Assembly (NCBI GenBank): GCA_963730995.1
Contig: CAVSUB010000013.1
Span: forward strand, 2,173,167-2,237,166
DNA length: 64,000 nucleotides
Source: an uncultured Acidobacteriota bacterium
GTDB taxonomy: Bacteria; Acidobacteriota; Vicinamibacteria; Vicinamibacterales; 2-12-FULL-66-21
Direction: 5' to 3'
Made by a program: the position numbers and the translations under genes. Below the pieces are notes generated by a model. It was not told the origin of the DNA and ran no database searches. It worked only from the letters and a program-made list of their open reading frames with translations. Of the stretch, positions 4,989-61,240 are shown piece by piece; the stretch's first letter is position 1, and every line of letters begins with the position of its first letter.

Positions 4989-5642
4989 ATGGAAATGCAC
5001 GCGCACGTACCGAAACTCGGCAAGACCCTCGGCCATTGGCTGCTCGAGGGACTGTTCATCGTGATCAGCGTGGCTCTGGGCTTTTGGGTAACGCAGGTCC
5101 GCGAAGAGCGCCAGAGTCATGAACTCGCCGCACGCGTGCTGACAGGTCTGCAGGCGGAGATTCAACACAACCTCACGACGGTCGAACCGTTCATTGCCAT
5201 CCAGCAGAAGTGGCTCGATGCGATGGGCAAATTCGGGTCCGCCACAGATCGTCAAACCGACTTCCCCGTCTGCCCGACGTCCTCGACGGCATGTGGCATG
5301 TTCTTCGCCACCCGTCCGGATCTCGGGGAGATCAAAACCAACTTCCCGATCTTCCGCCGGGCCGCGTGGGATACGGCGCTTTCGACAGGGGCGCTGCGGC
5401 TCGTGGATTACGATCTCGCTGCCGGACTGTCCGAGATCTACCAGATGCAGGATCTCTTCAAGAACAACCTGGAGAAGGTTGGCCCGTCTTCCACGGACTG
5501 GTTCGACGCGGCCGCTCGCGATGCGGCAGTTCGCAAGACGTACATGGCAATGGTCGAAGTGCTATACGACGAGCGTCAGCTCCTGCTTCCGCTATATCGC
5601 AAATACCTGCCCCTCATCGCCGCCGCGGTTGGCCAAGGCTGA
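4989..5642 (+). CDS. Hypothetical membrane-anchored protein with an N-terminal transmembrane helix.
   Basis: The 217-aa product has a balanced, protein-like composition (K, N, F, Y, I) that is unlike the GC-driven junk ORFs. One transmembrane helix is predicted (WLLEGLFIVISVALGFWV). Confidence 0.5.
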   Translation: MEMHAHVPKLGKTLGHWLLEGLFIVISVALGFWVTQVREERQSHELAARVLTGLQAEIQHNLTTVEPFIAIQQKWLDAMGKFGSATDRQTDFPVCPTSSTACGMFFATRPDLGEIKTNFPIFRRAAWDTALSTGALRLVDYDLAAGLSEIYQMQDLFKNNLEKVGPSSTDWFDAAARDAAVRKTYMAMVEVLYDERQLLLPLYRKYLPLIAAAVGQG

Positions 5643-28526: not shown

Positions 28527-29903
28527 TCAACGGGGATGTCGTCGAACATCGTCCCGCATGGTGAGCGTGGAGGCGGCGGGTGCGCGGACGAACATATCGA
28601 AATCGTGGCGGGTGTCGCGTTCGTCGATTGGATGGCGGGATGTGAAGACGACCACCTCGCCAGATGCATCCAGCTGCGGCGCCTCACTCTCTTCGGCCCA
28701 TCCGCCGGATGGCAGCGCGCTGATCCAGTCGGTGTGCCCGGTCGTGCGATCGAACCGAAAGACATCGGCGAGCAGGTTCACATCTTCGAGCGGGGCCTCG
28801 CAACCGCGGGCGCAGATCATGTCGGACGCATCCGACTGGAACGCGATGAAACGGCCGTCCGCGGAGATAGCGGGGCTGCCACTCGGACCGTTCGCCGTTC
28901 CGCCCTTCGCGGCGCGGCTTACAAGCGCAATCGAGCCGTCAACCATGTCCCGTACGAACACGTCCGGCGAGCGATTCCGATCGCCGCGCGTGAGATTCGT
29001 GGCGTCCGACGTCAAGGCGATGAAGCGCCCGTCCCGGCTGATCGCAGCGTCGAAGCTGGCGCCGTCGAGCGGTCCGGCACCGCCGACGCTGACGCGTCTC
29101 GTCGTGCCGAGTTCCCTGTCACGCACGAAGACCTGAGCTGTCGGTGCTGTCTGACTCCTGCGTCCCTGGGATGGCTCACCTCCAGCAATACCATCCAAAT
29201 CGGCCGTCGAGGTGAACGCGACCCAGCGGCCATCGCCGCTGACGCTCGGGGCAAAGCTGGAGCCGATGGCGCTCTGAATGCCACGGCTGTCGACGCTGAT
29301 TCTCCGCAGCGCGCGCGTGGCCGGCACCCACTCGTAGACATCGGCTCGAGAGCCGTTTTCGTCCCAACCCGCGACGAGATCGGTGACTGTCGACCGAAAG
29401 ACAACGAGCTGGCCGTCGTCGCTGATCGCAGGATCACCGGTCCACTCTGCACTGGACCCCTCCGTGTCTCCGCGTATACGCGTTGACACGTCGCGATCTC
29501 GGTCGCGGTAGACGACGTCGGCCATGGAAGGCGAGCCGGCATTCGTTCCAAGCACCGTGTGGAACACGAGGTAGCGGCCGTTCGCGCTCAGGCGCGGGTG
29601 CCCGCTGTCGCCGTTCAACGGACGGCCGTCGGCTTTGAGACTCTCGAGCGAGATCCGCCCGCTCAAACGATCGAGGACGTAGATGTCGGCGCGGTCGTTG
29701 GTATCAGCCGGAACCAGTCGCGCGTACGACATCACCGCAACGTACCGGCCGTCAGCGCTGACCGAGGCGGACGCGCTTGCCGAAGATCGCCAGCGGTCAC
29801 CCTGCTCGAGGGTCATGAGAACAGCAGGGGGCTGAACCTGCGTGCCGAGCAGCAAGCCCATCGCCGTGATGCCGACGCTTGCGGAGGCACGCAGCATTTT
29901 CAC
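28527..29903 (-). CDS. Secreted PD40/TolB-like beta-propeller repeat protein.
   Basis: A signal peptide is followed by repeated S(A/G)DGR(Y/F)(V/I)AF PD40 motifs (VSADGRYVAV; LSANGRYLVF; ISDDGQLVVF; VSGDGRWVAF; ISRDGRFIAL; ISADGRFIAF). Confidence 0.75.
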   Translation of the reverse strand: MKMLRASASVGITAMGLLLGTQVQPPAVLMTLEQGDRWRSSASASASVSADGRYVAVMSYARLVPADTNDRADIYVLDRLSGRISLESLKADGRPLNGDSGHPRLSANGRYLVFHTVLGTNAGSPSMADVVYRDRDRDVSTRIRGDTEGSSAEWTGDPAISDDGQLVVFRSTVTDLVAGWDENGSRADVYEWVPATRALRRISVDSRGIQSAIGSSFAPSVSGDGRWVAFTSTADLDGIAGGEPSQGRRSQTAPTAQVFVRDRELGTTRRVSVGGAGPLDGASFDAAISRDGRFIALTSDATNLTRGDRNRSPDVFVRDMVDGSIALVSRAAKGGTANGPSGSPAISADGRFIAFQSDASDMICARGCEAPLEDVNLLADVFRFDRTTGHTDWISALPSGGWAEESEAPQLDASGEVVVFTSRHPIDERDTRHDFDMFVRAPAASTLTMRDDVRRHPR

Positions 29904-29993
29904 ATCTGCTGTTTCGGCTGAGCTTTCACATCTGCCGTTCTGTCTGAGTCCTCGTCTGCCGTGTCGGCGCTCATCTGCTGCTCCAGCCGGCCT

Positions 29994-39536: not shown

Positions 39537-41343
39537 CGCCCTGCGCCGCTACAAACCGCAAGGGCTGACCTCGCGGTCGATCGTCCTGCTGTGGATTGCC
39601 GCCTTCGGACTGGTGGGCTTCGACGGCCAGACGACAGCCGACCCCCAGGCGCGCGCCAGTTTTCACGCCACGATCGATCCCGTCGTCGACGCACTCTGGT
39701 CGGCGTTCGACGAGCGCGCAGCGCTCGACCACGTCAGGTTCATCAGCCAGTACTGGCGCCTCCCGGGGAACACGGGTTACAACGCGTCCCTCGACCGTAT
39801 CCGCGATCGGCTCGTCAGCGCGGGCTTCGCGGCAAATGCCTCGGCCACAGCGCCGCGCGTTGTTGTAGAGGAGTACGCGAATTCCGGGCATGCGTGGGAA
39901 TACACGACAGGGACCGTCGCGATCGTTCGCCCTGGCGCGCAGGACGAAATCGTGCTCTCCCGGGACAAAGACCGCCTGGCGCTCTGCATCAATTCCTTTT
40001 CCACAGCGCCCGAAGGCGTGGTCGCCCGCCTCGTGGACGTCGGCGCCGGACGAGACGCCGACTACCTTGGCAAGGATCTCAAAGGCGCTGTCGCGCTCGG
40101 CGACGCCGAGACGGCCGCGTTGTGGCGCAAAGCGGTCGTCGAAGACGGTGCGATTGGTGTCATCTCAACGGCGCTCCCGTCCTATCTCGACGCCGATCCG
40201 CCAGGCGCCACAGTCCGCACGCCTCGAGATCAGTGGGACATCCTGCAGTGGAGCAGCATCCCGTACGACGAGAGCAGAAAGGGCTTCGGCTTCAAGGCCA
40301 CGCCGCGCGCGGCCGCGCGGCTCCGGCGCGCGTTGACGTCCAACGGCGGCGCCGCGGCACCGTCGGTCCGCGTCACCGTTGCGAGCACCTCCTCCACCGC
40401 GCCCGTACGCTCGCTCATCGCGGAGATTCCCGGCCGGATCGCGCCCGACGAGCGGATCGTGATCGCTGCGCACGTGCAGGAGCCGGGCGCAAACGACAAC
40501 GCGAGCGGCGTCGCCACCGGAGCCGAGATGGCTGTCGCCCTGGCGAAGTCGATTCGAGAAGGACGCGTCCCCCCGCCGTCACGCACCCTCACGTTCCTCT
40601 TCATCACCGAGATCGCCGGGAGCCGGCAATGGCTGCAGAGGGTGGGATCAGACCCACCCGGAACAGGCGCAGCCAGGCATGTCAGGTACATGTTTTCGAT
40701 GGACATGACCGGCGAGGACGTGACGAAGACGGGCGGCACGTTTCTTATAGAGCGTTTCCCGGATCCGGGGGCCGTTTGGGATCGGCCATGGGATCCGCAC
40801 ACCCAGTGGGGACGCGGCAGCGTCAAGGCGGAGAACCTCAAAGGCGACCTGATCACCGACGCGCACCTGGCGGTCTGCCAACGCGTCGCGAGGAAGACTG
40901 GCTGGGACGTGAGAACGAACCCCTACGAAGGCGGTAGCGATCACACCGTGTTTGGCGCCGCCGGGATTCCCTCGGTTCTCGACTGGCACTTCACCGACCG
41001 CTACTACCACACCAACTTCGACACGCCGGACAAGACGAGCCCTGCCGAGATGAGGAACGTCGGAGTGGCCGTGGCCGCTACGGCCTGGCTCTTCGCGTCG
41101 GCCACGGAATCCGTGGCGCTCGACGTGGCGCGCGTAGTCGCCTCCGCGGGGGAAGCGCGGCTCGCCAGAGAGCAGACCGACGGAGCCACGCTCCCATCGG
41201 CTGACCTCGTCATACCGGCCTGGCGAAAGTGGTACGCCGAAGCCGTCAGAAGCGCCGACCGGCTGGTCGTCGGAGCACCTTCGGCGGACTTTGCCGGCCG
41301 CCTGCGAACGCTCTCCGCTCCGTTCGATTCCCCGTCGCGCTGA
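39511..41343 (+). CDS. M28-family peptidase (aminopeptidase with a PA domain), secreted/membrane-anchored.
   Basis: An N-terminal transmembrane/signal segment (IVLLWIAAFGLVGF) is followed by M28 zinc-ligand context (IAAHVQEPGANDNASGVA...FSMDMTG...GGSDHTVF). The start is uncertain, and the ATG at 39511 overlaps the tyrS 3' end. Confidence 0.75.
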   Translation: MRSSLQKRNALRRYKPQGLTSRSIVLLWIAAFGLVGFDGQTTADPQARASFHATIDPVVDALWSAFDERAALDHVRFISQYWRLPGNTGYNASLDRIRDRLVSAGFAANASATAPRVVVEEYANSGHAWEYTTGTVAIVRPGAQDEIVLSRDKDRLALCINSFSTAPEGVVARLVDVGAGRDADYLGKDLKGAVALGDAETAALWRKAVVEDGAIGVISTALPSYLDADPPGATVRTPRDQWDILQWSSIPYDESRKGFGFKATPRAAARLRRALTSNGGAAAPSVRVTVASTSSTAPVRSLIAEIPGRIAPDERIVIAAHVQEPGANDNASGVATGAEMAVALAKSIREGRVPPPSRTLTFLFITEIAGSRQWLQRVGSDPPGTGAARHVRYMFSMDMTGEDVTKTGGTFLIERFPDPGAVWDRPWDPHTQWGRGSVKAENLKGDLITDAHLAVCQRVARKTGWDVRTNPYEGGSDHTVFGAAGIPSVLDWHFTDRYYHTNFDTPDKTSPAEMRNVGVAVAATAWLFASATESVALDVARVVASAGEARLAREQTDGATLPSADLVIPAWRKWYAEAVRSADRLVVGAPSADFAGRLRTLSAPFDSPSR

Positions 41344-41487
41344 AGGACACACCTTCTCCGTGCCCTTCGCCGCGCGTCACGACCGCTGCGCCGCGGCGTC
41401 ACAGCGTCGACGACCGCAGGAGCGCGGACTTTGTTTTGGTCCAGCTTTGGCCTACGATGAGGTGCTTCCTTGCCAGCGGGGACCACG

Positions 41488-42615
41488 ATGATGCGGCATT
41501 CCATCGTTCGGCAATCCGTTGCGCTCGCCCTGGCGTGCGCAGGCGCGGCGGTCATGCCAGACGACCGTGCGATCGGTCAGGAAGGTTTCCGGTTTCACTC
41601 GAGCATCGAGCTCGTCAACGTCACGGCGACCGTTACCGACAATTCCGGACACTTCGTGCCCGGGCTGAAGCAGACCGACTTCCTCGTGTTCGAGGACGAT
41701 CAACCGGTTGAGGTCACACAGTTCAGCTCCGAGCGCGTTGCGGTCAGCCTCGGGATCGTGCTGGACACCAGCGGCAGCATGGACGGGCAGAAGATCAATG
41801 CCGCGCGGGTGGCGCTCGAGCGGCTCCTCCTCGATCTGCTCGGCGACGACGACGAAGTGTTCCTGTATCGGTTCGACAACTCACCCCATCTTGTCCAGGG
41901 CTGGACGAGCGATCGGAACCTCATTCGAGACGAGCTCCGCCGCATTCCGACGGACGGCGCGACAGCGCTCTACGATGCCGTGGCCCAGGCGCTTCCTCTA
42001 CTTGAGTCAGGCCGTCATCGCAAGAAAGCGCTCCTCGTCATCTCCGACGGCAACGACACCAGCAGCAAGATCGACCTGCCGCGGCTGAAGCAGCTGATTC
42101 GCGAATCAGAGGCGCTCGTCTACGCGATTGGAATCGACGCCCAGGCTACCAGCGCGACGACCGGAAATGGCGCGGTTCGCGATAACCGGATGTTCGAGCA
42201 GCGAAGACGGCCTTTCCCGATTCCGCCTCCGTTTCCCGGTCCGAGAGTCCCTCCGCGCACCCCGCCGGTGCCCGGAACGCCGCCCGGCACCGCACCTCCG
42301 CCGCGCCAGCCGCGGACGCCACCGTCCGACGAACCGGGCAGCAACAGCGCCGGCGCGCGTCGAGGGGATGAGCCGGTCAACACCAATGCGCTGCACGACG
42401 TGACGGACGACAGCGGCGGTCGGACCGAGGTCCTGCGGGATGCGAAGGATCTCGGACCCGCGACCGCACGTATCGCAGACGAGTTGAGCAAGCAGTACTA
42501 CCTGGGATATCCGAGCCGCGCGCGGCATGACGGCCAGTGGCACGCGATCAGAGTCGAGATCCGGGATCGGTCGTTCAATGTCAGGGCGAGGAAGGGGTAC
42601 CGGGCGCCCTCCTAG
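41488..42615 (+). CDS. VWA-domain protein (Acidobacterial VWFA-related family), secreted.
   Basis: A signal peptide is followed by a VWA MIDAS-type motif (LDTSGSMDG). A Pro-rich linker (PFPIPPPFPGPRVPPRTPPVPGTPPGTAPPP) and a C-terminal conserved tail (KQYYLGYPS...RARKGYRAP) complete the protein. Confidence 0.85.
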   Translation: MMRHSIVRQSVALALACAGAAVMPDDRAIGQEGFRFHSSIELVNVTATVTDNSGHFVPGLKQTDFLVFEDDQPVEVTQFSSERVAVSLGIVLDTSGSMDGQKINAARVALERLLLDLLGDDDEVFLYRFDNSPHLVQGWTSDRNLIRDELRRIPTDGATALYDAVAQALPLLESGRHRKKALLVISDGNDTSSKIDLPRLKQLIRESEALVYAIGIDAQATSATTGNGAVRDNRMFEQRRRPFPIPPPFPGPRVPPRTPPVPGTPPGTAPPPRQPRTPPSDEPGSNSAGARRGDEPVNTNALHDVTDDSGGRTEVLRDAKDLGPATARIADELSKQYYLGYPSRARHDGQWHAIRVEIRDRSFNVRARKGYRAPS

Positions 42616-42738
42616 GGTTCTAGGTTCTAGAGGTTCTAGAGGTTCTAAGGTTCTGGGTTCTAGGGTTCCGGCGCCAGTGCCCTGAACCTAGAACCAGGAA
42701 CCCTTAGAACCTTTAGAACCCTGGAACCCTGGAACCTA
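42613..42738 (+). repeat. Tandem-octamer inverted-repeat element, (GGTTCTAG)n - centre - (CTAGAACC)n, that fills the whole convergent intergenic gap.
   Basis: About 7 GGTTCTAG-like units (42616..42669) precede a cGGCGCCagtgccct centre, which is followed by about 7 complementary TAGAACC/GGAACC units (42682..42736). The arms pair with G.U wobbles and bulges into a 50-55-bp interrupted stem. The element spans exactly from the VWA stop to the mgtE stop. Confidence 0.8.
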
Positions 42739-44166
42739 CAAGAGGGTCCCATGCAGGACCACCAGCGCGACGGTGAAGTAGATCACCAATCCCGTCACGT
42801 CGACCAGCGTCGCGACGAACGGTGCCGACGACGCTGCGGGATCGAATCCCAGTCGGCGCATCAGCAGCGGCAGGAGTGAGCCGGTCAGCGTTCCCCACAA
42901 CACCACACCGACGAGAGACAGGGCCACGGTCCAGGCAATCAGGAGCCAGTGCTGGCCATAGGTGTCCGCGAACGCCGACCACAGCGTGATTCGGAGAAAA
43001 CCAATCGTTCCGAGGATCAACCCAAGGGCGACACCGGCCAGGATCTCGCGGCGCATCACACGCCACCAGTCGCGGAGACCGACCTCGCCCAGCGCCAGGG
43101 CGCGGATGACGAGCGTCGCCGCCTGGGATCCCGAGTTGCCGCCGCTCGAGATGATGAGTGGAACGAACAGCGCGAGGACGACAGCCTTCGTGATCTCCTG
43201 CTCGAAGGATGCCATCGCCGTTGCGGTCAGCATCTCGCCGAGGAAGAGCGCGGTCAGCCATCCGGCGCGCTTCTGAATCATCCGTCCGAAGCCGATGTCC
43301 ATGTAAGGCTCATCCAGTGCTTCCGATCCACCGATTCGCTGGATCTCTCGCGTCGCGGTCGCTTCCGCCACGTCCAGCACGTCGTCGATGGTGACGATGC
43401 CGATGAGCATTCCGGTTGTGTCGGTCACGGGCAGAGCGCTGCGGTCGTACTCGCGGAACACGGCGACGGCGGCCGTCTGATCGTCCGTCGCTTTCAGCGA
43501 CACGAAGCGCCTGTCCATGAGATCCGCGACCTTCCTGTCGACGGGGGCCAGCAGGAACTCCCGAATGCGGATGTCGTCGATCAGCAGACCCTGCTCGTCG
43601 ATCACGTAGATGACGTTCAGGGTCTCGCTGTCCTGCCCGTGAGCGCGAACGTAGTCGAGCACTTCGCGGACGGTCCAGCCTTCGCGAATCGCCACGTAGT
43701 GCGGCGTCATCAGCCGCCCGATCGAGCGCTCGGGATACCCGAGCAGCGTGACCGCGACCGATCGCTCCTTTGGCGTGAGGAGGCCCAGAAGCTGGCGTGT
43801 GGCCGTCGCCGGCAGCTCCTCGAGGAACATCGTGCGGTCGTCCGGCGCCATGTCGTTCAGCAGCGCAGCCACGTCCTCCTGGGCCATCGCCTTGAGCAGC
43901 GTGTCTTTCGCGTCGTGTTCGAGGTATTCGAAGACGGTGGCCGCATCTTTCCTGGGCATCACGCGGAACACGACGACCTGGTCTTCGATGCTCATCTCCG
44001 TCAGCAGGGCGGCGAGCTCTCCTGCATGACGGTTGCGGATCATGTCGCGGAGCCGCGCGTAGTCCCGCGCACGCAGCACCGCGGCCAGTTCGTCGGCGAG
44101 CCTGGCGATCTGGCGAACGACGCCCAGCGCCTCCTCGCGTTGCGGTCCGTTGAGTTGCTGTTCCAT
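42736..44166 (-). CDS. mgtE: Magnesium transporter MgtE (core gene, 476 aa if started at the internal ATG at 44166).
   Basis: The MgtE N domain, CBS pair (IGRLMTPHYVAIREGWTVREVLDYV...; VADLMDRRFVSLKATDD...) and MgtE transmembrane domain (ISSGGNSGSQAA...) are present. The ORF stays open upstream for a further 402 codons; see the next feature. Confidence 0.7.
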   Translation of the reverse strand: MEQQLNGPQREEALGVVRQIARLADELAAVLRARDYARLRDMIRNRHAGELAALLTEMSIEDQVVVFRVMPRKDAATVFEYLEHDAKDTLLKAMAQEDVAALLNDMAPDDRTMFLEELPATATRQLLGLLTPKERSVAVTLLGYPERSIGRLMTPHYVAIREGWTVREVLDYVRAHGQDSETLNVIYVIDEQGLLIDDIRIREFLLAPVDRKVADLMDRRFVSLKATDDQTAAVAVFREYDRSALPVTDTTGMLIGIVTIDDVLDVAEATATREIQRIGGSEALDEPYMDIGFGRMIQKRAGWLTALFLGEMLTATAMASFEQEITKAVVLALFVPLIISSGGNSGSQAATLVIRALALGEVGLRDWWRVMRREILAGVALGLILGTIGFLRITLWSAFADTYGQHWLLIAWTVALSLVGVVLWGTLTGSLLPLLMRRLGFDPAASSAPFVATLVDVTGLVIYFTVALVVLHGTLL

Positions 44167-46267
44167 TTGTCTGAGCGCGGCCCTCACGACGTCGTGGTGG
44201 TGCACGTGCGGGCCAATGGCTTTCGTGACGTCGAGCCAGAGGCGGTGAATCTGATCCAGATCGGCGGCGGTGAGCGATGGAGGATGCGCGCCAAGGTGAT
44301 ACGAGTCGGTGCGCCCGCTGCGATGGTAGACGACCAGCCGGACGTCGAGCGGCTCGGGCTTGGCGGCATTCTCCCAAGCCTCGCCGAGGAGCCGGGCCTG
44401 CTCGTCGGCCGACAGAGTCGCCGATTCCCCGACGTGCACGTCCGACGATCGAAGCCGCAGGATGGTCGAGACAATCGCGTCGAACACGTTGTGCGCGGGC
44501 ACGATCAGCAGGCGCACCGAACGCCCCTGGCGCTCCGCGACCGCAATCACTTCAGACAGCAGCCGCTGTTCCGCAAGGGTCGGCGCGGCGTCGGTCGCCG
44601 CGTCTTCCGCCACGTCCAGCCCGACGAGCCGAACCGTCATGACCACGACGTCGCGATCGCGCGCCGCCTGCAGGGCCGAATGCAGGTGCGTCAGTGCGCG
44701 CGGGTTGCGCACTGGGACCAGGACGTTGCCGACGCGCGCGTCGATGTGATCGAGCGACAGCTCGGCCGCCGGAAGGAGATCGAGCGTCGCCGGGCTGTCG
44801 GCGACCACGCGGGACTCGACATCACGCGCGCCGAACGTGAAAAGGACCGTCAACCCACCGATCAGCGCGACAGTAGCAATGGAAGGGCCGTCGCCCATCG
44901 CGATCATGGCAAGAGCGCTCACGCCAACGATCAGACCGGAGCCGATGACGCCCAGCGGGATCTCGCGGCGGCCGACCTGCAGGTTCGCACCAGCCTTGAA
45001 CGGCTTCGGCTCCGTGCGCTTGCGACGCAATCTGAGGAGCGTCGCCGCTTTGAGCGCGACGCTGGCCGCCACGGCAATGGCATAGGCACGCCCGAGCCAT
45101 TCCACTCGGCCGCTCCCGGCGAGGATGATCAGGATCGTCGCCGCAGCCGCGACGTCGATCGCGCGCGCGGGCGTGCCGAATCGCGAGTGCAGCGCCGCGA
45201 GACCCTCCGGCAGAATGCCCTGGGTCGAAAGCCCCTCGAGCATGTGCTCGGCGTCGCCCAGCGCGGCGTGGGCGGCCGGCACGAGCATCAGGACTGCCGC
45301 GATGACGAGGCCGATTGCCAGGACGTCGCGCAGCCATCGCGGCGCGGCCAGATGCTGCGCAAGACCAGCCATGCGGCGCGGTGATCCAGGCGGCTTGCTC
45401 TGTCGCCGGTATCAGAAGAGCAAACAGGAACGTGGTGAGTGTTGTCACGAACAGCGCGAACACCAACGTCAGGAGAGCGGTCCGGCGCAGTGCCTGCACG
45501 CGAGGCGGCTCCAGCTCGTGCGCCGCCTGGGCGAGCACTTCCCCGCCACCAATCGCGGGAAGGACGAGACAGAGGCCCGTCAGGCAGGTCAGCCCCGCGT
45601 CGAGGTACCAACGCAGCGTCGGGACGGGCGCCGGCAGCGAGACGAGCGGGGCGAGAGGCGGGGCCGTCCGCACCGCGCTGACCACACTCCACAGAGCCGT
45701 CAGTACGAGCACGCCTACGCCAATCCAGACGCCGCGGGCGATCGTGTCCGACCGGAGGTCCAATCCGACGCGCGCCCGAATCCACAGCAGCCCCACCATC
45801 ACTACCGCGAGCATCGTCGCGAAGTCTTCGGGCCTGAGGAGACCTGTGAGCCGGAGCCCGGCTATGGCGGTCACGGCGACACCTGACGCATAGTGCCCCG
45901 CGACGACGACCGCGAGCGCGGCGAGAACGAACCGCTCGGTCAGCACCGTCGCGGCGGCCGTGCCGGCCAGCGAGGGGCCGAAGGCGTACTCGACGCGCCC
46001 GACGAACCCGCCGGGGATGAACACGGCCCAGCTCTCGATATCGATGGCGCGGACGAATGCCGCCAGAACGACTGCGGCCAGCACGAACCATCCAGCGCGC
46101 GGGCCGAGAACGGCAGTACTGACGCCGGCGATGAAGAACGCCGCGGCGCCAAGCTGCGCGAGCGCCAGCGCAGCCGCCTTCCGCACGGACATGAACGAGA
46201 GCAGCGCCGTCGAAGAGAGGACGACGCGCACACGGCGCCGGGGATCGATCAGAGGAACGAGCGGCAT
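44167..46267 (-). pseudogene. APC-family amino-acid permease with a C-terminal Usp-like domain, +1-frameshifted near 45340..45400 and reading through in frame into mgtE.
   Basis: ORF 44822..46567 (from the ATG at 46267) encodes about 8 transmembrane helices, including the APC signature ...ESWAVFIPGGFVGRVEYAFG. The last transmembrane helices and a Usp-like domain (NVLVPVRNPRALTHLHSALQAARDRDVVVMTV...) continue in the +1 frame, ORF 42736..45372. No stop codon separates this region from mgtE. Confidence 0.5.
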
Positions 46268-58548: not shown

Positions 58549-58702
58549 CGGCAGATAACGACTCTCGACAATCTTAGTCCCTGCGAAGTTCGCTGACGCG
58601 GAGGACGGACCTTGAGAGTCTGTGAAAACATCGAGCGTCTGTGCCCCCAAGTCACGCGACGCGGAGGGGAAACTGCTGCGCTACTTGACACGAGATCAGA
58701 AG

Positions 58703-58745
58703 GTCAGGAGATCAGAAGACCAAAACCCCTTGATCTTCTGATCTC
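58703..58745 (-). terminator. Perfect 15-bp hairpin (CAGGAGATCAGAAGA...TCTTCTGATCTCCTG) just downstream of the FkbM gene.
   Basis: The 15/15-bp stem has a 13-nt loop. A third partial copy of GATCAGAAG lies immediately 5' on the plus strand. No U-tract follows. Confidence 0.45.
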
Positions 58746-58786
58746 CTGTGGTTGACGGCGCCTCAAGAGAGATCCACCCAACGAAT

Positions 58787-60731: not shown

Positions 60732-61240
60732 CGCGCATCGGGATCCGCCGTCCTGGGTCCGGGATCCGTAGACACCGGGCTATTCGACTTGTTCATGCCA
60801 ACCCTTACGACGTCCGCTGATCTCTGGCCACGATCTTTCCGAGCACCGACCACGGATTCCTGATCCCTGACCTCGACATGATCCACCCCCATGCTTGAAT
60901 CCCGCGTCCTCCCGCAGCGGCGCCTTCCCGTCGCCGCTCGCGCGATCGTCGTGCTGCTCATAGGAGCCGGCCTAGCACTCCTCTATGCGAAGAAGATCGA
61001 GCGACGCATGCCGGACTATGAGGTGTACCGCCGCGCCGCGGCCCGGGCGGCGCGCGCGGAGCCTCTTTACCGACCCAGCGACGGGCACTATCAGTTCAAG
61101 TTCCTCGATCTGCTATCTCGTGATCATCGGCGGGCTCGTCGCGCTGCGGGCGCAGAGGGTGGCGTGAACGGCTGACAGCTATCAGCTGTCAGCTCTCAGC
61201 TTCGTGCGGAATTCACGCCCGACTCGAGTGAATTCCGGGA

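Follow-up and report, generated by a model that had tools for sequence, protein, structure and literature searches.

The DNA analysed here, referred to as the window, is a stretch of 64,000 nucleotides (nt) from contig CAVSUB010000013.1 of an uncultured Acidobacteriota bacterium of the order Vicinamibacterales, and the element under study fills the gap between two convergent genes of this stretch. On the plus strand, positions 41488–42615 encode a VWA-domain protein of 375 amino acids (aa), recognized from the open reading frame (ORF), its translation, and the Pfam domains VWA_2 and VWA; a public collection holds a protein of 375 aa (P0001) that is 100% identical to it. On the minus strand, positions 42736–45372 hold an ORF of 878 aa for an MgtE-type magnesium transporter, with MgtE_N, CBS, and MgtE domains in residues 449–868. 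The two stop codons are separated by 120 nt (126 nt stop to stop), and the only non-repeat sequence between them is a 15-nt centre flanked by two short-tandem-repeat arrays of opposite orientation.

The left array (42612–42668, plus strand) is a G/T-rich arm that begins with CTAG and continues with seven GGTTC-core units at a period of 7–9 nt. These units read GGTTCTA, GGTTCTAGA, GGTTCTAGA, GGTTCTAA, GGTTCTG, GGTTCTAG, and GGTTC, and their cores start at 42616, 42623, 42632, 42641, 42649, 42656, and 42664. The centre, CGGCGCCAGTGCCCT (42669–42683, no strand assigned), contains the palindrome GGCGCC and represents the apical loop region of the predicted fold. The right array (42684–42738, plus strand) is a C/A-rich arm of seven GAACC-core units, the complement of the left-arm unit, in the order GAACCTA, GAACCAG, GAACCCTTA, GAACCTTTA, GAACCCTG, GAACCCTG, and GAACC, followed by a terminal TA, with cores starting at 42684, 42691, 42698, 42707, 42716, 42724, and 42732; on the minus strand, this arm reads as another GGTTC array. 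Both flanking stop codons come from repeat units: the VWA stop (TAG, 42613–42615) lies within the first CTAG of the element, and the minus-strand MgtE stop (TAG, 42738–42736) shares the last C of the final GAACC. The element itself carries stop codons in all six frames.

An initial annotation, made from the sequence alone, had described the gap as opposed repeat arrays of about 7+7 copies around a 15-nt GGCGCC centre, with 120 bp between the stops. The sequence bears this out, as does Tandem Repeats Finder (TRF), which reported arrays of period 8–9 with 80–100% matches on both sides of the centre, in agreement with a repeat finder. The same annotation called the gap entirely tandem octamers, which is right about its repetitive make-up and too strict about the unit, given that the arms hold 4+1 exact GGTTCTAG units, the remaining units are mostly variants, the periods range from 7 to 9 nt, and the centre is not repetitive. 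Likewise, the palindrome that it proposed does form a stem, but the arms are just 75–77% complementary in an ungapped alignment. The whole gap is thus an imperfect palindrome because two arrays happen to be opposed at this site, and it is the longest close inverted repeat of the window. Exact GGTTCTAG occurs five times in the 64 kb, always within the element, against 0.48 copies expected, and five or more copies were found in 0 of 100 shuffles; a three-unit pattern gave 10 matches in the window against 0.00 expected. The element is present at the same site in four independent metagenome assemblies and is therefore no assembly artefact. The tetranucleotide CTAG is about 14-fold depleted in the window (positions 1–64000; 15 copies observed and 207 expected from base composition), and six of these 15 copies sit in the 126-bp element, so that the repeat unit is centred on a word that the genome otherwise avoids.

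Folding of both strands with RNA parameters predicted a stem of about 55 bp on each, at −98.1 kcal/mol for the plus strand (z −9.9) and −87.3 kcal/mol for the minus strand (z −7.2); folded as DNA, the element reached −42 kcal/mol (z −7.6). The minimum free energy structure accounted for just 0.1–1.4% of the ensemble, which points to many competing registers and fits the register-slippable stem of about 50–55 bp that had been foreseen for either strand. Both convergent mRNAs would accordingly end in a 3′ hairpin of about 55 bp, which could slow or pause RNA polymerase and obstruct 3′ exonucleases. Such an arrangement recalls intrinsic terminators, which also place a stable stem-loop right after convergent stop codons, and the initial annotation had suggested a bidirectional terminator. 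In its fuller form, this explanation holds that the element is a selected terminator or 3′-end stabilizer, in which the stem stops or pauses polymerase arriving from either gene and protects both mRNAs, and the repeats merely built the stem. The very stable hairpins predicted on both strands and the position exactly between the convergent stop codons speak for it. However, intrinsic terminators have stems of 5–15 GC-rich pairs, not a repeat stem of about 55 bp, and no U/T-rich tract lies directly 3′ of the stem on either strand (CAAGAGGGTCCC on the plus strand and AGGAGGGCGCCC on the minus strand); a promoter and terminator scan yielded nothing, with 0 terminator sites in 41000–44500. A small structured RNA had been considered as well. 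An Rfam scan of 42300–43000 at a permissive E-value returned only sub-threshold matches to microRNA-precursor models, the best of them at 27.1 bits against a gathering score of 53, and all matches were of the generic long-hairpin type.

The repeat is not confined to this locus. We scanned a species-representative genome set (one genome per species) with the strict pattern GGTTCTAG-N0-2-GGTTCTAG-N0-2-GGTTC, that is, two exact units and a third core, and more than 107 stretches matched, which is a lower bound; the initial annotation, which had envisaged copies elsewhere, was correct on this point. Fifty of the listed matches fall in 19 metagenome-assembled genomes (MAGs) of Acidobacteriota, most of them labelled Vicinamibacterales, the order to which the named relatives of the window VWA protein also belong. 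Among the matches listed, there are at least 14 separate loci in CAVRPA01, at least seven in JBKPTE01, and at least six in MELC01. The source genome has one GGTTCTAG-array locus in the 64 kb read. Additional arrays that had not been ascertained through the pattern numbered six in 381 kb of Acidobacteriota loci, or about one per 64 kb, which equals the density in the window. The consensus unit of the family is GGGTTCTA / GGTTCTAG at a period of 7–9 nt, and the variants GGTTCTAA, GGTTCCAG, and GGTTCTGG also occur; genomes differ in whether a unit of 7, 8, or 9 nt dominates, and arrays contain 3–16 units.

Gene context was judged against ORFs with coding-like GC content by codon position, a crude heuristic that makes the counts approximate. 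By this measure, the arrays are almost always intergenic, lie between convergent, tandem, and divergent genes alike, are found 3′ of gene ends as well as 5′ of gene starts, and often touch or supply stop codons. Opposed pairs occur at about 10 of 56 sites, and the other sites are one-sided, so that the majority of family sites lack a hairpin of this type. The centres of the pairs are unrelated from site to site, and the copies have no unique core in common. The dispersed entity is therefore the 8-nt tandem array and not the 120-bp palindrome. A scan of metagenome contigs with the locus centre TTCCGGCGCCAGTGSCCTGAA, aimed at further orthologous alleles, gave two matches, both by chance and in unrelated sequence. 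TRF analysis of the same 381 kb found 31 arrays of period 7 and 39 of period 8, with none of period 4–6. Thirty-nine TRF arrays in these loci have other units (GGCTTGG, CTTGGGG, TCCCCGA, TCGGGAT, CGAAGTT, TCTGCCG, etc.), which are often concatenated with GGTTCTAG arrays, and most companion units consist of three or four Gs plus four or five other bases. In CAVRPA01, entire intergenic regions are made of concatenated 6–8-nt arrays, for example, (GGTCTTG)n(GGGCTT)n(GGTTCTAG)n(GTCTGCC)n or (GGTTCTAG)3(CCCCGAT)12, and the units recur at several loci of this MAG. Such regions lie at positions 2640–2880 and 5250–5400 of locus L033, 1880–2090 of L097, 5880–6070 of L096, and 6700–6830 of L021.

Matches beyond Acidobacteriota are mixed, with some real non-coding arrays and other cases of coding repeats with a 9-nt period. 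Most of them have the 9-nt unit GGTTCTAGN in frame as Gly-Ser-Ser (L120–L166 on viral contigs, L017 and L104 in Nitrosopumilaceae, and L028 and L106); because these arrays encode Gly-Ser-Ser, they are low-complexity protein linkers unrelated to the intergenic family. A scan of viral contigs with the array pattern gave 47 matches, nearly all with the 9-nt GGTTCTAGN period or on low-GC contigs, and no link to phages of this lineage. Separately, dispersed, non-coding-looking 9-nt arrays of GGTTCTAGA and GATTCTAGA, several per MAG, are present in gut and rumen MAGs of unrelated phyla, namely Victivallales/Lentisphaeria (L024, L029, L039, L044, L050, L056, L057, L061, L070, L082, L086, and L094) and Bacteroidales (L002, L009, L043, and L080); some of these arrays are at contig ends where the assembly breaks.

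Our searches of the searchable literature brought up no description of the GGTTCTAG family or of such repeats in Acidobacteria, and those on octamer repeats and on Vicinamibacter tandem repeats likewise gave nothing of relevance. The closest known kind is represented by the G-rich heptameric intergenic simple sequence repeat (SSR) families GGGAATC of Xanthomonas campestris/axonopodis and GGGGA(C/T)T of Nostoc PCC 7120 (Rehm et al., 2015, PMC4692102). The GGGAATC arrays are intergenic, lie within 50 bp of stop codons or overlap them, vary in length between species, and form 70–75 convergent inverted pairs per genome that can fold into stem-loops; such G-rich heptamers are transcribed, have no link to mobile elements, and are without a resolved function (PMC4692102). 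The arrays described here share with them the head-to-tail units of 7–9 nt that start with a run of G, the dispersal of one unit over intergenic sites, the proximity to or overlap with stop codons, a unit number that varies among relatives, frequent convergent pairs, and the lack of a link to mobile elements. They differ in having an 8-nt unit (GGGTTCTA/GGTTCTAG) that contains the strongly avoided CTAG, in their host phylum (Acidobacteriota, within Vicinamibacterales), and in that the window copy has mostly GG, which makes G-quadruplex (G4) formation doubtful. Two further systems are comparable. Cyanobacterial short tandemly repeated repetitive (STRR) heptamers (references 33 and 39 of PMC4692102) comprise several 7-nt tandem intergenic units per genome for which slippage has been proposed, and long-unit SSRs are said there to be over-represented in large high-GC genomes; the period 7–8 excess of the Acidobacteriota loci is similar, whereas the taxon and unit sequences differ and opposed pairs are prominent in the Acidobacteriota family. 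The TAACTGA direct repeats of marine Beggiatoaceae, cyanobacteria, and Bacteroidetes also consist of a single short unit, a heptamer, whose tandem copies occupy over 100 intergenic sites in each genome and which distant lineages have in common (MacGregor, 2015, PMC4679880). They lie a few nt upstream of start codons, suggesting translational control, and only one indirect repeat was seen (PMC4679880); by contrast, arrays of the GGTTCTAG family occur equally often at 3′ and 5′ ends, and they commonly form pairs.

Orthologous sites were located through homologues of the VWA protein on metagenome contigs. The convergent VWA/MgtE gene order is conserved down to about 74% VWA protein identity, but the DNA between the stops is not, and eight structural states of 7–150 nt stop to stop were found at this site. 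Relative to the window (100% identity, 7+7 units, 126 nt), L108 (97%) retains 7+7 units and the same centre, with several unit substitutions and indels (129 nt), whereas L167, also at 97%, has lost about 85 apical nt and is left with 2+3 units (42 nt). At 91% identity, L109, L110, and L111 have 7+8 units, one centre change, and 12 extra nt past the stop (150 nt); across L108–L111, the centre CGGCGCCAGTGCCCT is kept with one C/G change. Two other contigs of 91% identity depart from this state: L116 has only CTAGAACCCTTAGAACCTA, with two GAACC units (18 nt), and L168 carries another kind of left array, made of GGTTCTAGA units, where its contig ends in a break, so that no length is available. In more distant relatives, L117 (76%) has 4+2 units arranged as a loop-less perfect palindrome, GGGTTCTAGAACCC, centred on CTAG (52 nt); L113 (75%) has seven GGTTC units without an opposite arm, the MgtE stop lying in the last unit (61 nt); and L112 (74%) is empty, its stops standing 1 nt apart as TGA-c-CTA (7 nt). 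At 66% identity (L114 and L115), the neighbour gene is another one and an ordinary GC hairpin lies 3′ of the VWA gene. Predicted stem energies across the orthologous sites ranged from −92 to 0 kcal/mol. These comparisons indicate that the site gains, loses, inverts, and collapses arrays within a few per cent of protein divergence. In the Xanthomonas families, the single or paired type of a site is usually preserved between two species (PMC4692102); here, the VWA/MgtE site switches type repeatedly. Since the site is hypervariable and the flanking genes manage without the element, it behaves like an unstable simple-sequence locus, and not as an indispensable terminator or an RNA gene would.

When the four full-length alleles were folded to a consensus, the covariation term was −0.25 kcal/mol; no usable covariation is available from it because the paired columns are invariant repeat cores. 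L111 carries four left-arm changes that have no compensation in the opposite arm, and on this 3.7× contig, sequencing errors are possible. The covariation term and the L111 changes thus lend no support to structure-specific selection on the stem. Combined with the sub-threshold Rfam matches and the variability of the site, this argues against the small structured RNA of the initial annotation.

The allelic series also bears on the terminator. In favour of a selected 3′-end structure, the hairpin state is kept in relatives of 91–100% identity, and in Xanthomonas, transcript starts or stops coincide with G4-capable repeats more frequently than with control repeats (PMC4692102). On the other hand, the stem is deleted in the close relatives L167 and L116, and the farther orthologues are one-sided (L113) or have their stops 1 nt apart (L112), so that, in contrast to what is expected of a terminator, the orthologous site is not conserved. 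Moreover, most family members cannot make the hairpin, pairs are also found in tandem and divergent gene contexts, in which a terminator acting in both directions would be senseless, and the alleles contain no compensatory change. With these losses added to the missing U-tract and the absence of predicted terminator sites, we regard a selected bidirectional terminator or stabilizer as unlikely.

A third proposal was a non-autonomous mobile element inserted between the two genes, of the kind known as repetitive extragenic palindromic (REP) sequences, bacterial interspersed mosaic elements (BIMEs), and REP doublets forming hairpins (REPINs), or as MITEs (miniature inverted-repeat transposable elements). 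The element does resemble these in being small, intergenic, dispersed, and palindromic overall, and in being present at some orthologous sites and absent from others. Its unit, however, is a non-palindromic 8-nt tandem and not an imperfect palindrome of 20–40 nt, and the copies vary in unit number (3–16), orientation, and centre without a conserved core. They have neither defined ends with terminal inverted repeats nor a uniform length; instead, lengths and architectures vary continuously. No target-site duplication was apparent when the empty L112 was compared with the filled sites, and the intermediate states (one-sided, 4+2, and two units) fit stepwise growth and decay and not cut-and-paste movement. 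An origin by transposition therefore seems highly improbable for this element, with no search made for a RAYT transposase gene, and of all the explanations considered here, it is the one we find least credible. In sum, the initial annotation was right about the hairpin and the dispersal of the element, but its main functional guesses were wrong, and a conserved terminator, a mobile element, or an RNA gene is in each case an unlikely fit.

Another possibility is that the arrays are functional motif arrays, either of protein-binding sites in DNA or RNA or of G4 tracts, that regulate the neighbouring genes, the hairpin being incidental; a scaffold for a repeat-binding protein had been part of the initial annotation. 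Recurrence of the same unit across many loci and MAGs would fit such a role. In addition, the consensus (GGGTTCTA)4 fits a G3-N5 quadruplex pattern, and (GGGTTCTA)n agrees with the G4 sequence rule of four or more tracts of at least three Gs. The companion units in these MAGs are mostly built likewise (GGGCTT, GGGGCTT, GGGATTC, and GGGGATC), and this design of three or four Gs plus further bases forms G4 in vitro in the Xanthomonas and Nostoc repeats (PMC4692102). The G-rich strand of the consensus could also self-fold as RNA through G-U pairs (−23.5 kcal/mol, against −9.3 kcal/mol for the C-rich strand). The window copy, however, is mostly GG and contains no canonical quadruplex motif: it has three GGG runs on the plus strand and four on the minus strand, where the loops are 5–18 nt against the 1–7 nt of the quadruplex rule. 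Unit spacings of 7, 8, and 9 nt are poorly suited to phased protein binding and, together with the wealth of other units that these genomes carry, disfavour a repeat-binding protein. Single arrays showed no detectable preference for either orientation with respect to the upstream gene (13 sense and 11 antisense by the crude gene calls), and the locus is dispensable in relatives. On balance, we give a regulatory motif array only a small chance of being the correct explanation.

The opposed pairs have a marked polarity. Among complementary pairs of 6–11-nt arrays at the fetched loci (L001–L107) and in the window, 19 begin with the G-rich arm and two with the C-rich arm; within the GGTTC family of Acidobacteriota, counting pairs with at least three units per arm, the numbers are 10 and 0. 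In other words, the G-rich strands converge, and they do so across several phyla. Both exceptions, L039 and L056, are a Victivallales element, CACAGAACA...TTCTGTGTA, with a spacer of about 85 nt. The orientation of the genes is no explanation for this polarity, since all three gene arrangements (convergent, tandem, and divergent) are represented among the flanks of the pairs. These counts come from a small sample whose loci were ascertained through a single unit, and for heterologous neighbouring arrays the polarity is not significant (10 versus 4).

Such pairs have the geometry of a head-to-head telomere fusion. Their polarity might be a signature of how the repeats are made, namely by directional addition of units at G/T-rich 3′ ends; distant bacterial phyla would then share a repeat-generating process of DNA synthesis or repair, with the arrays as its scars, a notion that we put forward as speculative and improbable. 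If it were true, two routes could generate the polarity: fold-back synthesis primed at the CTAG palindrome, or breaks whose ends are extended iteratively and then rejoined. As a full account of the present element, in which G/T-rich units would have been added to 3′ ends by either route, directional synthesis draws on the 19:2 and 10:0 counts, on their persistence in all three gene contexts, on the loop-less L117 junction GGGTTCTAGAACCC centred on CTAG, which is what a switch there would produce, and on the Xanthomonas pairs, which are also reported as convergent (PMC4692102). Yet it starts from a polarity pattern in the small, one-unit sample described above, the enzyme and the break being hypothetical, and the heterologous arrays are not significantly polar. 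Furthermore, the advantage of the G-rich strand in self-folding is seen with RNA parameters and not with DNA parameters (−4.2 kcal/mol for the G-rich and −3.6 kcal/mol for the C-rich strand), and fold-back priming therefore stays a conjecture. We consider this account very improbable.

Taken together, these results lead us to favour, with reasonable though far from complete confidence, the view that the element represents a single locus within a lineage-specific intergenic short-tandem-repeat family of Vicinamibacterales (Acidobacteriota) at which two arrays stand opposed with their G-rich strands converging, and that it is tolerated and unstable, not selected. The features that define an SSR family were all found, namely a tandem unit of 5–11 nt, many intergenic loci in related genomes, and inter-genome variation at one and the same site. 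By this reading, units would be gained and lost by replication slippage, and the second, complementary arm would arise by strand-switch or fold-back synthesis, that is, by a template switch. The CTAG of each unit is self-complementary, and the L117 junction is exactly at CTAG. Arrays may then be lost by palindrome-stimulated deletion, of which L167 and L116 would be examples, and the copy at the VWA/MgtE locus is probably tolerated rather than selected.

Several points weigh against this view. The 7+7 hairpin and its centre are kept at 91–100% VWA identity (the window, L108, and L109–L111), so the hairpin is not instantly lost, and some benefit from a 3′-end structure may exist. Slippage alone fails to account for one 8-nt unit turning up at numerous loci across numerous MAGs, which needs some form of seeding or favouring, and the strict G-rich-first polarity calls for a directional process. 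Gene calls at the fetched loci come from the GC-frame heuristic, and the context counts inherit its approximation, while the size of the family in the source genome is extrapolated from the 64-kb window and the density in relatives.

Apart from the element, the window contains other short repeats. Between ORFs at 58688–58749, a second hairpin is formed from a short tandem repeat, with GAGATCAGAAG present twice, a loop of AAAACCCC, and then CTTCTGATCTC; its 19-nt arms are 95% complementary, and the purine/G-rich arm comes first. A heptamer array of CAGCTNT (about 4.4 copies, 61168–61201) begins 2 nt past a TGA stop and exemplifies, on a small scale, the intergenic 7-nt repeats in which related MAGs abound; it is followed, within the region 61168–61237, by another hairpin of its own, GCGGAATTCAC...GTGAATTCCG. 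The highest TRF score of the window (74) belongs to a 26-nt unit, TTTCACATCTGCCGTTCCGGCTGAGC, repeated twice in tandem at 29898–29948; the best score of the element studied here is 68. The neighbouring MgtE ORF is also unusual in being much longer than usual MgtE, with 878 aa in the window (42736–45372, minus strand) and 1054–1176 aa as called in relatives (for example, 4172–7702 of L109 and 2580–5744 of L111), and Pfam identified no domain in its N-terminal 430 or so aa or more, a part that is partly hydrophobic.

What is new here is a repeat family with an 8-nt unit in Acidobacteriota, of a kind that is already known and poorly understood. For annotation, the tempting reading of the gap as an exotic terminator, a MITE, or a small RNA gives way to an ordinary one. 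The G-rich-arm-first polarity offers a simple and testable constraint on the mechanism that generates such pairs, and the series of states at the VWA/MgtE site, from empty and one-sided through a small perfect palindrome and the 7+7 hairpin to collapsed remnants, amounts to a natural time-course of the birth and decay of a palindrome. More broadly, the family extends the class of G-rich 7–9-nt repeats known from Xanthomonas and cyanobacteria to a third phylum, and it indicates that the intergenic space of Vicinamibacterales is partly filled by fast-evolving arrays of 7–8-nt units that even supply the stop codons of adjoining genes.

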